Below the pieces are notes generated by a model. It saw only the letters and a list, made by a program, of their open reading frames with translations, did no database searches and was not told the origin of the DNA. Positions 21,479 through 54,724 of a DNA stretch of 64,000 nucleotides are shown in pieces. The position numbers and the translations under genes are program-made. Within the stretch, counting starts at the first letter, position 1, and every line of letters begins with the position of its first letter. The DNA comes from Thermoproteota archaeon (GTDB taxonomy: Archaea > Korarchaeota > JAOZGF01 > JAOZFZ01): assembly GCA_027492035.1 (NCBI GenBank), contig JAOZFT010000004.1, positions 96,001 to 160,000 of the forward strand, in the 5' to 3' direction.

Positions 21479-23074
21479 TTAGGGTAAATATTTGACCATA
21501 TAAGCCCCCAAGTGTTCGTACCCTAGCCTTTTATAGTATAATTTTGTACCTAAAGCGCTTGTTACCAGAATTTTCTCTTTACGGTGCTTTTCACTTATTT
21601 CTTCAGCTAAAGATAAAAGCTTCTTTCCTACACCCTTATGCTGGTAAGCATTTTTTTTCTTGGCACCTACAGGAATCATCTCGCCATAAACATGCAGCTC
21701 ACGAACTAACGCTGACTTACCCCTTATCTCCCACCTGAAAACCTTTGAAGAAGGAAATCTGAGCCTAAGAAAACCTACCAATGCGTCCTCTAACTTAGCC
21801 GTTAAAAAGAATTCACGCCCCCCCGAGGCTTCATAACTAGTTATTTCATAACTTATTTCACAGGAACCTTCCTTTTTCTTCTTCAAACGACCTATTTCAT
21901 TACATCTTATGCATTTGCATCTTAACCCCTTTTCATCCATGTATTCCTTAATAAGTTGTCTTAAATTGCTTTTCTTAACACCAGCTGCTATTTCCGGTGC
22001 TGGGATGTCACGTTGAACCCGCATTATCCGCACCCAAGGCGGAACTAAGGATTTTATTGCAGCAATTACTTCAATTGCAGTTTCTAAACTGTAAGGGATG
22101 TACACCCCCTCTTTCCAAAGGGTATAAAGCTTAGTTCCAGGAATAACCAAGGTGGGGTAGATCTTTAACATGTCAGGTTTAAATTTCTCATCCATGAATA
22201 TTTCCTTCGCCATTGAAACATCCATCTTAGGAGTTGAACCAGGTAAACCAGGCATGATATGGTAACATACTTTTAAACCGGAGTCTTTCAGTTGTTGAGT
22301 GGCTTCATAAACATCCTTTACTCCATGTTCCCTATTTATCAAGGAGTATATTTCATCATAAATGGTTTGTACACCTAATTCAACCCTGGTAACACCTAAT
22401 TCCAGCATTAAGTTTATATGTTCCTTTTTTGAATAATCAGGCCTTGTCTCCACAGTTAAACCAACATTTCTTATTTCACTTGACTCAGCAAGCCTTTTTG
22501 TTTCCTCTAGCGTCCTTCCTATTTTATTATTTAAAGCGTCTAAACATTTTTTCACAAACCCCCTTTGATAATTTCTTGACATTGCAGGGAAAGTGCCTCC
22601 CATAATAATTAGTTCAACTTTGCTTACGGTATGTCCTATGGAGGATAATTGCTTTATACGCTGTTTAACTTGCATGTAAGGATTGAATTCGTTTTGAATT
22701 GCCCGCATAGCTGCTGGTTCTTTGCCTGTATAGCTCTGAGGAACGTCGCCAAAAATCGAACTAGGTCCTCCAGGGCAATAAATACATGGTTTATCTTTGG
22801 GACAGGGGAAGGGATGAGTCATAACTGCTATAACATTCACGCCTGAAAGACTTCTGACATTTTTTATCCTCAACAAGTTTTTAAATTGAAACAGCCCCCT
22901 CTTTTCCATGTAGGAGATAATCTCTGAATTTTTGGGGACCCTTCTCAAGTTTAGCCTTTTAGCTACCTTAATCTTTAATTTATTAAGTTGAACAGGGTCC
23001 ACAGTTCCTGAATTGGGAATTTCTTTCAACAATTCTTCAGAGAAAACATTTGTGGACCAGAGGGTGTTTTCCAA
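21479..23074 (-). CDS. elp3: Elp3 tRNA U34 acetyltransferase (radical SAM plus KAT)
   Basis: CPKDKPCIYCPGG, QSYTG.EPA, ETRPD, RELHVYG, QHKG.G. Confidence 0.96.
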   Translation of the reverse strand: MENTLWSTNVFSEELLKEIPNSGTVDPVQLNKLKIKVAKRLNLRRVPKNSEIISYMEKRGLFQFKNLLRIKNVRSLSGVNVIAVMTHPFPCPKDKPCIYCPGGPSSIFGDVPQSYTGKEPAAMRAIQNEFNPYMQVKQRIKQLSSIGHTVSKVELIIMGGTFPAMSRNYQRGFVKKCLDALNNKIGRTLEETKRLAESSEIRNVGLTVETRPDYSKKEHINLMLELGVTRVELGVQTIYDEIYSLINREHGVKDVYEATQQLKDSGLKVCYHIMPGLPGSTPKMDVSMAKEIFMDEKFKPDMLKIYPTLVIPGTKLYTLWKEGVYIPYSLETAIEVIAAIKSLVPPWVRIMRVQRDIPAPEIAAGVKKSNLRQLIKEYMDEKGLRCKCIRCNEIGRLKKKKEGSCEISYEITSYEASGGREFFLTAKLEDALVGFLRLRFPSSKVFRWEIRGKSALVRELHVYGEMIPVGAKKKNAYQHKGVGKKLLSLAEEISEKHRKEKILVTSALGTKLYYKRLGYEHLGAYMVKYLP

Positions 23075-23378
23075 TTCTATATACCCCTAAATTTAATTAG
23101 TTTGGGAAAGGATAGTTTATTAGGGGGAGAGAGAAACTTTAATAATATTCTTTTAAATTCTCCTTAGCCTTTCATGGGAGTAGAGGAAAAAAGGCAGGTT
23201 TACTTACGTTACTTTTTTAAGGTATACCTTTATATTTTTAAACATTGAAGGAATTTTATGGAAGGGAAACGTGAGCATGGGATTTCTTTATTGCTTCTCT
23301 CCTTTTTTTTAAAAAAAAAGGGAGAGTGAATGAAAAAGAGTAAAGGGTGAGAAGACTTTCTGCAGGTTAAAATTTTGA

Positions 23379-23386
23379 GGAGGTGA
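23379..23386 (+). promoter_or_regulatory. Shine-Dalgarno site of rps30e
   Basis: GGAGGTGA ends 7 nt upstream of ATG 23394. Confidence 0.85.
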
Positions 23387-23393
23387 TACTTTT

Positions 23394-23575
23394 ATGCCAA
23401 GAGGCAGCCACAGGTTTTAACCGGCTAGGGCAGCTTGGCAAAGGCAGGAAAGGTTAGAAAAGCTACTCCTAAGGTTGAAGGGAAAAAGAGACGCAGTCCC
23501 CCAGCTAGGGTAAGAAATAAAAGAAATTACATTAAGAGGGTGTTATTGAAAAGAAAAATTGGTCAACCTAAGTAG
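23394..23575 (+). CDS. rps30e: 30S ribosomal protein S30e (eS30), split by a 17-nt intron; join(23394..23411,23429..23575)
   Basis: Spliced product of 54 aa: MPRGSH|GSLAKAGKVRKATPKVEGKKRRSPPARVRNKRNYIKRVLLKRKIGQPK, with the eS30 HGSL..AGKVR..TPK signature; lies directly upstream of nop5-fibrillarin. Confidence 0.92.
23412..23428 (+). other. Predicted bulge-helix-bulge (BHB) mRNA intron
   Basis: Intron AGGTTTTAACCGGCTAG; central helix AGCC/GGCT, 3-nt bulges ACA and AGG, inner helix GGT/ACC, outer helix GC/GC plus TGCCAAG/CTTGGCA. Confidence 0.85.
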
Positions 23576-23609
23576 GGAAGATCCAATTAAAAGACTAAGT
23601 AGGTAAAAA

Positions 23610-24788
23610 TTGAAAATGAAAGCTTACCTAACTGTTTCACCATTGGGAGTGTTAGCAGTAAATGAAAAAAAGGAAATAATTCTAGTTAAGAAATTAAAGG
23701 GGGATATAAACCAAGTAACGGACAAATTTATCTCTTTTTTAGAAAAAAGGACACTTACAGAACTCAATAACGCCTTAGAAGAATTACTAGATATGGGATA
23801 CCGAGAAATAAACATTGAAGAGAGGGAACCTGTAAAGGTAAAGGAAGAAATTAAGGGAGTCATAAAATATAGTATACCAAATAAAGCTGGTTTATTGTTT
23901 AGAAGATATTTCACGGCTTTATCAGTTGAAAAATTTGGTTTCAGAAACAAAAAGGAAGCAAGAAGACGCATTCGTGAAGTAAGTATAAGGGTTACGGTTT
24001 ATGGAATAAAGAAGGATAGATCCAGAAAGGATTTATCGATCATTCAAGCCATACATGTATTAGATGACTTGGAAAAAATGCTTAACTCCCTCTTTTTGAG
24101 GATAAAGGAATGGTACTCACTATACTTTCCTGAACTGTTTGATATATTAGAGTCTCAAGAATTAATAATCAAACTAATTTCCAAATTTAAGAAACCAGAA
24201 AAGATTAACCCACAAACCCTTAAGGAAGAATTTAATTTGCCATCAGAGATTATAAATAAAATAGCGAGTTCCATTAATGAAACTGTTGGGGCGAAGTTGC
24301 AAGAGAGAGACAGTGAGGTTATAGAGGAATTGATTCAGGAGTGGCTTTCTTTAAAAAAGTGCTATGATGCAGTGAGGGGCTACATAGAAGAGGAAATGCC
24401 GAAAGTAGCACCAAACACTTCTTCACTTACAGGGGCATTAATAGCTGCCCGGCTTATTTCGTCAGCAGGAGGGCTGGAATCACTTGCTAAATTACCCTCA
24501 AGCACTATCCAGTTATTAGGAGCTGAAAAAGCTTTATTCAGGTTTATAAGAGGAAAAGGTACACCCCCAAAACATGGAGTTATTTACCAATACCCTTTAA
24601 TAAGGAAGTCAAACAAGAAAGTAAGAGGGAAGCTAGCTCGTAAACTTGCTAACAAGATAGCCATTGCAGCTAGAATTGACATGTTTTCAGGGGGCAGAGG
24701 TGAAGGCAAGCTTCAAGAAAAATTTGTGAGAGAAATCAAAAATATTGTTAAGGAAGAAAGGAATGAAAGTAATAAACAGCAAATTTGA
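23610..24788 (+). CDS. nop5: C/D box RNP protein Nop5
   Basis: IKEWYSLYFPEL, APN, LPSSTIQLLGAEKALF, PKHG. Confidence 0.95.
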   Translation: MKMKAYLTVSPLGVLAVNEKKEIILVKKLKGDINQVTDKFISFLEKRTLTELNNALEELLDMGYREINIEEREPVKVKEEIKGVIKYSIPNKAGLLFRRYFTALSVEKFGFRNKKEARRRIREVSIRVTVYGIKKDRSRKDLSIIQAIHVLDDLEKMLNSLFLRIKEWYSLYFPELFDILESQELIIKLISKFKKPEKINPQTLKEEFNLPSEIINKIASSINETVGAKLQERDSEVIEELIQEWLSLKKCYDAVRGYIEEEMPKVAPNTSSLTGALIAARLISSAGGLESLAKLPSSTIQLLGAEKALFRFIRGKGTPPKHGVIYQYPLIRKSNKKVRGKLARKLANKIAIAARIDMFSGGRGEGKLQEKFVREIKNIVKEERNESNKQQI

Positions 24789-25443
24789 GGGAATTTACTG
24801 GTTAAAAAAAGGTAAGAGAAAGTTCTTAGTAACAAAAAATTTAGTGCCTGGATTTAGAAGCTGTAATGAAGAAATAGTTTATGTAAATGGTCGAGAGTAT
24901 AGAGTATGGGACCCTTACAGGTCAAAAGCTTCTGCAGCGATACATAAAAAGGTAAAAGAGTTTCCTGTGAAGGAGGGGGACCTAATACTCTACCTTGGAG
25001 TAGCTTCTGGTACCACAGCGTCTTATTTAAGTGACATTATTGGTGAAGAGGGAGTCATCTATGGAGTTGATTTCTCAGCTTCAGCTTTATTACCATTAAT
25101 CCAAATTGCAAGGAAAAGGGAAAATATTGTTCCTTTACTCGCAGATGCAAGAACTCCTTCACGGTATATTAACTTCGTCGAAGAAGTTGATGTGGTGTAC
25201 TGCGACGTTGCGCAACCTAACCCTACTAGTATTGTGTCGACTAATTCAAATCTTTTTTTGAAAGAGTCAGGTTATGTACTGCTTGCTATAAAAGCCAGCA
25301 GCATCGATATTTCAAAAAAACCTAAAGAAGTGTACCTAGAAGAAGAGAAGAAGCTGAAAGAGACGGGTTTTGAAATAATTGACTCAGTGAATTTAGTGCC
25401 TTACCATAAGAAACATGCTTTCCTTCTCTTGAAAAGGAAGTAA
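24763..25443 (+). CDS. flpA: Fibrillarin rRNA/tRNA 2'-O-methyltransferase
   Basis: EYRVWDPYRSK, LYLGVASGTT, DVAQP. Confidence 0.95.
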   Translation: MKVINSKFEGIYWLKKGKRKFLVTKNLVPGFRSCNEEIVYVNGREYRVWDPYRSKASAAIHKKVKEFPVKEGDLILYLGVASGTTASYLSDIIGEEGVIYGVDFSASALLPLIQIARKRENIVPLLADARTPSRYINFVEEVDVVYCDVAQPNPTSIVSTNSNLFLKESGYVLLAIKASSIDISKKPKEVYLEEEKKLKETGFEIIDSVNLVPYHKKHAFLLLKRK

Positions 25444-54495: not shown

Positions 54496-54501
54496 ATTAA
54501 A

Positions 54502-54592
54502 TGGGCCGGGTGGGATTCGAACCCACGACCTCCGCCTTTTTCCAAGGAACAAAACGTGAAGGCGACGTCATAACCATCTAGACCACCGGCCC
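54502..54592 (-). tRNA. tRNA-Val(CAC) with 17-nt intron at 37/38 (54538-54554)
   Basis: GGGCCGG...TCGCC TT CAC G[TTTTGTTCCTTGGAAAA]A GGCGG...GGTTCGAATCC...CCGGCCCA. Confidence 0.9.
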
Positions 54593-54724
54593 ATTAAGGT
54601 GGTTCTGAATTTTTGTAAAGAAAAGTTAAGTTACAATTTAAAAGCTTTTTTAGTTGGAATATAAATATAGTATTTTTTTACCTTTAATTTTGGGTTAAGA
54701 ACTTGTTCGGGGCTGATTAATAAA

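Follow-up and report, generated by a model that had tools for sequence, protein, structure and literature searches.

A predicted 17-nucleotide bulge-helix-bulge intron in the coding sequence of an archaeal rps30e gene

Introduction

How does an archaeon make ribosomal protein eS30 if the reading frame opened at the start of its eS30 gene closes after eight residues? The question is raised by one locus in the 64-kb window analyzed here (G000:C9:96001-160000, where G000 is the source genome and C9 a contig); this window is the whole stretch of DNA under study, and positions given without a contig or locus label are positions within it. The G000 assembly (1.87 Mb, 42 contigs, 36.6% G+C) is 93% complete, and contig C9 accounts for 666 kb of it. 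The gene concerned, rps30e, carries a 17-nucleotide (nt) insert between codons 6 and 7, which, judging from its sequence, is very probably a real bulge-helix-bulge (BHB) pre-mRNA intron.

Results

The eS30 gene is divided between two reading frames

Translation from the ATG at 23394-23396 yields M-P-R-G-S-H-R-F and then meets a TAA at 23418-23420. The rest of eS30 lies in another frame, which is shut by a TAG (23426-28) directly upstream and is open from 23429. The elements of the gene are as follows.

23379-23386, plus strand: Shine-Dalgarno-like GGAGGTGA, 7 nt 5' of ATG 23394.
23394-23411, plus strand: coding part of exon 1, six codons (M-P-R-G-S-H); the same six residues open the uninterrupted eS30 of genome G002.
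23412-23428, plus strand: predicted 17-nt BHB intron, from the third nucleotide of the 5' bulge to the second nucleotide of the 3' bulge.
23429-23575, plus strand: exon 2, 48 eS30 codons and the stop codon TAG (23573-75), with a match to PF04758.

Within the second frame, an open reading frame (ORF) of 46 amino acids that starts at a TTG (23435-23575) matched the Pfam family PF04758 (Ribosomal_S30) with an E-value of 5.4e-6 and 27.0 bits, and in a six-frame search of the genome the family scored 34 bits over profile positions 4-49. The same six-frame search of the 93%-complete genome returned no second eS30 locus. An intact rps30e elsewhere, which the first-pass annotation had named as a finding that would undo its proposal of a spliced message, thus did not appear. 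Further, the 46-residue ORF is absent from a collection of 15 billion proteins and has apparently never been called as a gene.

The insert and its flanks fold into a strict BHB motif

The minimum free energy (MFE) fold and the centroid fold computed with ViennaRNA for 23390-23445 (56 nt) are both the canonical structure hBHBh', namely a BHB core with flanking helices h and h' (-20.3 kcal/mol). They reproduce exactly the fold drawn in the first-pass annotation, whose Shine-Dalgarno sequence, ATG frame, stems, bulges, mismatches, and coordinates were all correct when the sequence was read again. The elements of the fold are as follows.

23395-23401, plus strand: TGCCAAG, 5' strand of the outer helix, covering the start-codon U and G and pairing with 23434-23440.
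23434-23440, plus strand: CTTGGCA, 3' strand of the outer helix in the MFE fold, which contains TTG 23435.
23402-03 and 23432-33, plus strand: AG/AG mismatches forming a 2x2 internal loop between the 7-bp stem and the GC pairs.
23404-23405, plus strand: GC, the part of the outer helix that adjoins the central helix, paired with GC 23430-23431 in the MFE fold.
23406-23409, plus strand: AGCC, exon strand of the central 4-bp helix, paired with GGCT 23423-26.
23423-23426, plus strand: GGCT, intron strand of the central helix in the MFE fold.
23410-23412, plus strand: ACA, 5' bulge, unpaired in the MFE fold; predicted cut 23411/23412.
23427-23429, plus strand: AGG, 3' bulge; predicted cut 23428/23429.
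23413-23422, plus strand: GGT-TTTA-ACC, inner hairpin (h'), a 3-bp helix with a 4-nt loop.

Two 3-nt bulges therefore lie on opposite strands with a 4-bp helix between them, and both flanking helices of the strict motif are present, the outer one comprising 2 bp, the 2x2 loop, and 7 bp, and the inner one 3 bp. The 56-nt fold has a z-score of -2.22, with 6 of 200 shuffled sequences equally stable. The structure is kept in a 47-nt core (-19.8 kcal/mol, z-score of -2.47, 2 of 200 shuffles), as well as in a 101-nt context, where the z-score is only -1.03 and 31 of 200 shuffles are equally stable. The argument for the BHB motif rests on geometry and not on stability, the folding energy alone being unremarkable.

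The cut rule restores a conserved eS30 protein

In cbf5 introns, each bulge is cleaved between its second and third residues (Yokobori et al. 2009, PMC2738675). Scripted excision of the eS30 insert by this rule removes 23412-23428 (17 nt) and leaves an ORF of 54 codons. The first 16 residues of the predicted spliced eS30 are identical to those of the uninterrupted orthologue of G002, and an excision shifted by one base in either direction alters the His-Gly junction; because of this, the structural rule and the protein alignment independently pick the same 17 bases. The first-pass annotation had claimed just this outcome (exactly 17 nt excised, CAC|GGC joined, and a 54-residue eS30), and the agreement of the start of the product with G002 bears it out.

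Relatives lack the insert and the exon-exon helix

We compared the gene with its counterparts in a sample of 41 genomes, in which G002, of the same order, is the closest genome with an eS30 gene. All 30 eS30 loci of relatives that were inspected are uninterrupted and without the insert, and their proteins start with M/L-P-R-G-[ST]-H-G-[AS]-L; the comparison of related rps30e loci that had been proposed as a check thus gives presence and absence of the insert at a precise site. Four of the 41 genomes had no eS30 match, two of them at contig ends (G001 and G025) and two with low completeness (G033, 72%, and G039, 63%).

The outer helix, which pairs exon with exon, was assessed by pairing nucleotides 2-8 of the mature ORF with nucleotides 24-30. 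All seven pairs are present in G000, as against zero to three of seven in the 30 intron-less orthologues, and in G002 a different choice of synonymous codons gives the same peptide without the helix. Given the codon usage of G000, the probability that codon choice alone would produce all nine exon-exon pairs is 0.0021.

Further eS30 genes with an insert were sought by a degenerate pattern in which 13-43 nt separate the exon-1 codons from the KAGKV codons and which detects only introns between His6 and Lys11 of genes starting MPRG[ST]H. On genome contigs, it returned a single match, a chance one in a cyanobacterial metagenome-assembled genome, and on metagenome contigs it returned four, none of which was eS30. 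A homologue search with the exon-2 protein gave three matches, all intact eS30 proteins of 53 residues, and no truncated twin.

The strict motif is rare in the genome

In the strict scan, the central helix was set to 4 bp (with no more than one G-U pair), the minimum length of the inner helix to 3 bp and of the outer helix to 5 bp, and the maximum intron length to 67 nt; the local MFE fold had to reproduce the motif. It gave 39 matches from 25,357 pre-filtered candidates, out of ~2.0e8 position-by-length combinations on both strands, so that, even if all 39 are counted as background, the motif is expected by chance at ~2e-7 per specified site and length. The scan recovered the eS30 intron, as well as introns in cbf5 and in a gene for the chromatin protein Alba, but not the tRNA introns, and is therefore specific but of low sensitivity. 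A genome-wide BHB scan had been suggested in the first-pass annotation, and it has brought to light these two further interrupted protein genes in the same genome. When candidates were filtered for a Shine-Dalgarno sequence and a start codon in exon 1, eS30 ranked first and Alba second of 369. A variant of the scan based on energy (16 matches from 2,045 candidates) added only a tRNA intron in a T-loop.

Several of the strict matches were judged false by eye, namely the boundary of VapB/VapC-like genes at C19:33682-33704, an intact SAM synthetase gene at C9:641330-641366, and several non-coding frames. A loose scan combined with ORF-fusion filters was dropped, its 8,959 and 2,313 candidates being noisy and lying mostly at boundaries of adjacent genes.

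cbf5 and Alba carry similar inserts

The cbf5 gene of G000 is split, and its MFE fold is hBHBh' with the bulges AGA and AAA. The cut rule removes 23 nt (C9:310022-310044; L038:1494-1516) and restores GTL-D|P-NVTG, the intron sitting between the first and second bases of the catalytic Asp codon. The crenarchaeal cbf5 intron occupies that same Asp-codon site (PMC2738675). At the same site, the cbf5 genes of G001 (L046) and G002 (L047) have 15-nt inserts with in-frame stop codons, likewise read as BHB introns, and among the 41 sampled genomes cbf5 also shows stops or short frames in nine others (G009, G010, G012, G013, G019, G022, G027, G035, and G036).

The second gene, which encodes an Alba protein of the Sso10b family, contains a 36-nt insert (C9 232011-232046, minus strand; L044:1512-1547) with an in-frame TGA and a strict hBHBh' motif, and the cut rule joins ...IGR|KPTMNY.... 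Alone, its exon 2 starts at position 12 of 66 in Pfam Alba and at residue 12 of Alba structures in the PDB. A GGAGGTG precedes the start of the gene, and the motif leaves the gene's own start codon uncovered. The exon-2 ORF (L044:1265-1504) is recorded on six contigs in the collection of 15 billion proteins. In G001, Alba is interrupted as well, by ~60 nt with a relaxed motif only, and the tentative border lies 7 nt from the G000 site. On sequence grounds, the lineage thus appears to carry at least three BHB mRNA introns, namely those of eS30, cbf5, and Alba, and three is a lower bound because the strict scan is insensitive.

The genome encodes an endonuclease and a ligase and is rich in tRNA introns

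EndA of G000 is one ORF of 378 residues with two endonuclease repeats, seen as two PF01974 matches (C9:442896-444032; L035:649-1785). In comparisons with PDB structures, its C-terminal half is closest to crenarchaeal catalytic alpha subunits and its N-terminal half to crenarchaeal and nanoarchaeal structural beta subunits, an arrangement suggestive of a beta-alpha fusion of alpha'2-like layout. A protein atlas groups it only with archaeal two-repeat endonucleases. RtcB is intact and scores 578 bits. Both enzymes of the pathway proposed in the first-pass annotation, EndA and an RNA ligase, are thus encoded, and splicing of the message by them is a prediction from the sequence.

With introns allowed, ARAGORN made 36 tRNA calls, and 24 of the 35 on C9 carry introns. 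The BHB topology and the cut rule reproduced the anticodon-loop intron called by ARAGORN in 8 of these 24. Some calls of the intron mode are implausible (Phe-AAA, Pyl, and SeC).

Three observations concern the tRNAs themselves. A 28-nt BHB insert at C9:221893-221920 (minus strand) lies inside an apparent tRNA T-arm (GCGGGTTCAA...TCCCGC) and looks like a non-canonical T-loop tRNA intron. At 54501-54593 of the window (minus strand), ARAGORN calls tRNA-Arg(CCT) by default and Phe(AAA) with a 17-nt intron in its intron mode; the best BHB in this feature is an insert of 20 nt at position 46, and ARAGORN has probably mis-typed a tRNA that carries a non-canonical intron. Finally, 35 of the 36 tRNA calls fall on the first 450 kb of C9 and the remaining one on C40; the other 40 contigs (~1.2 Mb) have none. 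This distribution could reflect clustering, missed split or multi-intron tRNAs, or binning.

Genomic context

An Elp3-like gene lies upstream of eS30 on the opposite strand, and two genes follow downstream, the first of them directly after eS30.

23610-24788, plus strand: Nop5/Nop56 gene (Pfam Nop, E-value of 5.7e-62).
24745-25443, plus strand: fibrillarin gene (Pfam Fibrillarin, E-value of 2e-83).

The order eS30-nop5 is common to G000 and G002. The nop5 gene of G002 (L034:1300-2700) changes frame at a run of Lys codons and has two TGA codons inside the match, a pattern suggestive of a homopolymer error in the assembly and not of an intron. An Rfam scan of 22800-24000 (E-value of at most 1) returned three weak chance matches, none of them near its gathering score.

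Discussion

A model for expression of eS30

We propose that the rps30e pre-mRNA would fold into hBHBh', with the outer helix formed by exon 1 (ORF nucleotides 2-8) and exon 2, and with the central 4-bp helix joining exon 1 to the 3' portion of the intron. EndA would then cut between the second and third nucleotides of each bulge, that is, after 23411 and 23428, and RtcB would join the exons and release the 17-mer, probably as a circle. Only the spliced mRNA would give the 54-residue eS30, translated from ATG 23394, and unspliced RNA would give a peptide of eight residues. Cleavage, ligation, and translation of the spliced form are all steps that we infer.

Alternative explanations

The insert might instead have broken the gene, leaving a decaying or N-terminally truncated eS30, any translation of which would start at TTG 23435 and give 46 residues without the conserved start. 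A TTG ORF does exist and still matches PF04758, and the insert is present in one genome only. The Shine-Dalgarno sequence, however, serves ATG 23394, whereas the TTG has no good one and lies inside the 7-bp outer stem. Moreover, exon 1 is still identical to the first six residues of G002, the locus is the sole one for eS30, its N-terminal motif is kept in 30 of 30 relatives, and a strict BHB with rule-exact borders would arise by chance at the ~2e-7 estimated above. We consider a truncated gene very unlikely.

Equally, EndA might cut the motif without the halves being productively ligated, the BHB serving mRNA decay or down-regulation. A motif by itself is no proof of ligation, and cleavage of mRNAs by yeast TSEN leads to decay and not to splicing, according to a review (PMC10485636). 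Against this, such decay would leave the genome without a source of full-length eS30, the junction given by the rule exactly restores the conserved protein, and RtcB is encoded; we regard unproductive cleavage as highly improbable.

An assembly or sequencing artefact, in which case the real chromosome would lack the 17 nt, has in its favor that the assembly consists of 42 contigs and that the nop5 of a relative (G002) contains a probable assembly frameshift. An artefact would not be expected to create a strict BHB together with matching codon adaptation of the exons. The 24-nt stretch with the intron has no other genomic copy within four mismatches and is therefore not a misplaced repeat, and two other genes on the same 666-kb contig have the same kind of insert, which makes an artefact scarcely credible.

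Translational recoding has a negligible chance of accounting for the locus: a single frameshift is excluded because frame 0 and the exon-2 frame have no overlap (TAA 23418-20 precedes the opening of the latter after TAG 23426-28), and a bypass of the 17 nt, as reportedly in T4 gene 60, needs matching take-off and landing codons, whereas the flanking codons, CAC and TAG/GGC, differ and form no such pair. What speaks for it is that archaeal cbf5 introns were once mistaken for frameshifts (PMC2738675).

Evidence that weighs against a spliced eS30 message

Several points count against a BHB intron in rps30e. Splicing of this mRNA is a reading of one metagenome-type assembly, and an intact second eS30 copy could lie in the ~7% of the genome that is missing. 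The PF04758 score of the TTG ORF sits exactly at the 27-bit cut-off. Folding stability is modest (z-scores of -1.0 to -2.5), the genome contains an abundance of loose BHB-like motifs (238,767), and the tRNA control agrees in only 8 of 24 calls, the intron calls of ARAGORN being visibly noisy. The outer stem survives in the spliced mRNA and need not have evolved for splicing alone. In G001, which belongs to the same family as a sister genus, contig C199 ends inside nop5, where the upstream eS30 is expected, and G001 is therefore uninformative on the intron. No second intron-bearing eS30 was found among relatives, genome and metagenome contigs, or protein homologues; there is therefore no covariation within the intron, and the codon adaptation of the exons, set against the intron-less genes, is the only indirect support of that kind.

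Possible roles and implications

The location of the start-codon U and G in the outer stem might delay initiation on unspliced RNA. Such gating is put forward only as a possibility, because the stem persists after splicing and because the Alba motif does not include the start codon. On a wider view, this little-sampled archaeal class (three species genomes) might maintain a few mRNAs that EndA splices and that encode abundant proteins with roles in RNA binding or ribosome biogenesis, namely eS30, Cbf5, Alba, and perhaps others with relaxed motifs, with the translation of rps30e gated by the enzyme that matures tRNA and rRNA and with BHB introns gained de novo in coding sequence. We think this extended scheme doubtful; if the gating were true, the supply of a ribosomal protein would be coupled to RNA-processing capacity.

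With the introns of eS30 and Alba, if confirmed, the number of archaeal protein genes listed as interrupted would double, and BHB introns would be placed in core translation and chromatin genes. The eS30 intron would also be a clean case of recent intron gain, given a nearest orthologue with the same peptide and with neither intron nor helix. For annotation, the two introns would serve as a warning that splicing may lie behind genes of intron-rich archaea that are short or that seem truncated or absent.

Comparison with known splicing systems

The first-pass annotation had presented cbf5 as the well-documented archaeal mRNA intron of this kind. That cbf5 is documented holds (PMC2738675), but it does not stand alone, as a BHB intron also occurs in the 5' untranslated region of HVO_1309 in Haloferax volcanii; the report describing it gives the one in cbf5 mRNA as the only other extra archaeal BHB intron reported by then (Schwarz et al. 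2020, PMC7714728). Likewise, a 2023 JBC review (PMC10485636) counts two archaeal genes, cbf5 and HVO_1309, for which splicing by the endonuclease is known, and anticipates further ones, and introns in other archaeal protein-coding genes have been described as predicted and unconfirmed (Yokobori et al. 2009, PMC2738675). In a full-text literature search that covered few subscription journals and no supplements, no BHB intron turned up in the mRNA of a ribosomal protein or of Alba, and the part of a 2026 preprint on Asgard tRNA introns that was available contains no ribosomal-protein or Alba case.

The eS30 intron falls within the size range of crenarchaeal cbf5 introns (~16 nt upward), and the cbf5 intron of G000 itself shares their Asp-codon site (PMC2738675). 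It differs from them in its host gene, rps30e, and in lying away from the cbf5 Asp codon, 18 nt into the ORF after a first exon of only six residues. Its motif is a strict hBHBh', whereas that of cbf5 is often described as relaxed; the EndA of G000 is a single two-repeat chain instead of separate alpha and beta subunits; and the eS30 case is predicted from DNA. The crenarchaeal cbf5 intron is reportedly also the subject of papers by Watanabe (2002) and Yoshinari (2006).

With HVO_1309, the eS30 gene shares a predicted EndA substrate within an mRNA and a short intron near the 5' end (46 nt in HVO_1309; PMC7714728). The HVO_1309 intron, however, lies in an untranslated leader and leaves the reading frame intact, whereas the eS30 intron lies in coding sequence and would have to be removed for the protein to be made. 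Further, circRNA-seq and in vitro cleavage established the HVO_1309 intron, and circRNA-seq as published under-represents small circles (PMC7714728); the eS30 intron is predicted from its sequence. Compared with BHB introns of archaeal tRNA and rRNA, the motif, the cut rule, and the enzymes are alike, and the tRNAs of G000 are themselves intron-rich, with one intron in a T-loop; the eS30 substrate differs in being a translated message, the exon strands of which also satisfy codon constraints through synonymous codons.

Outside the archaea, the IRE1/RtcB system removes a short intron from HAC1 and XBP1 mRNAs by protein enzymes, independently of the spliceosome, and thereby changes the reading frame, with RtcB performing the ligation in metazoans. 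Its endonuclease is IRE1 and not EndA, recognizes other stem-loops, and is regulated by stress. The eS30 message would share with it mRNA splicing free of the spliceosome, but as a predicted EndA substrate. Splicing of HAC1 and XBP1 by IRE1 and RtcB is mentioned in PMC13149111. Across these comparisons, the mechanism is a known one; novelty lies in the genes that host the introns, in a first exon of six codons, and in the strictness of the motif.

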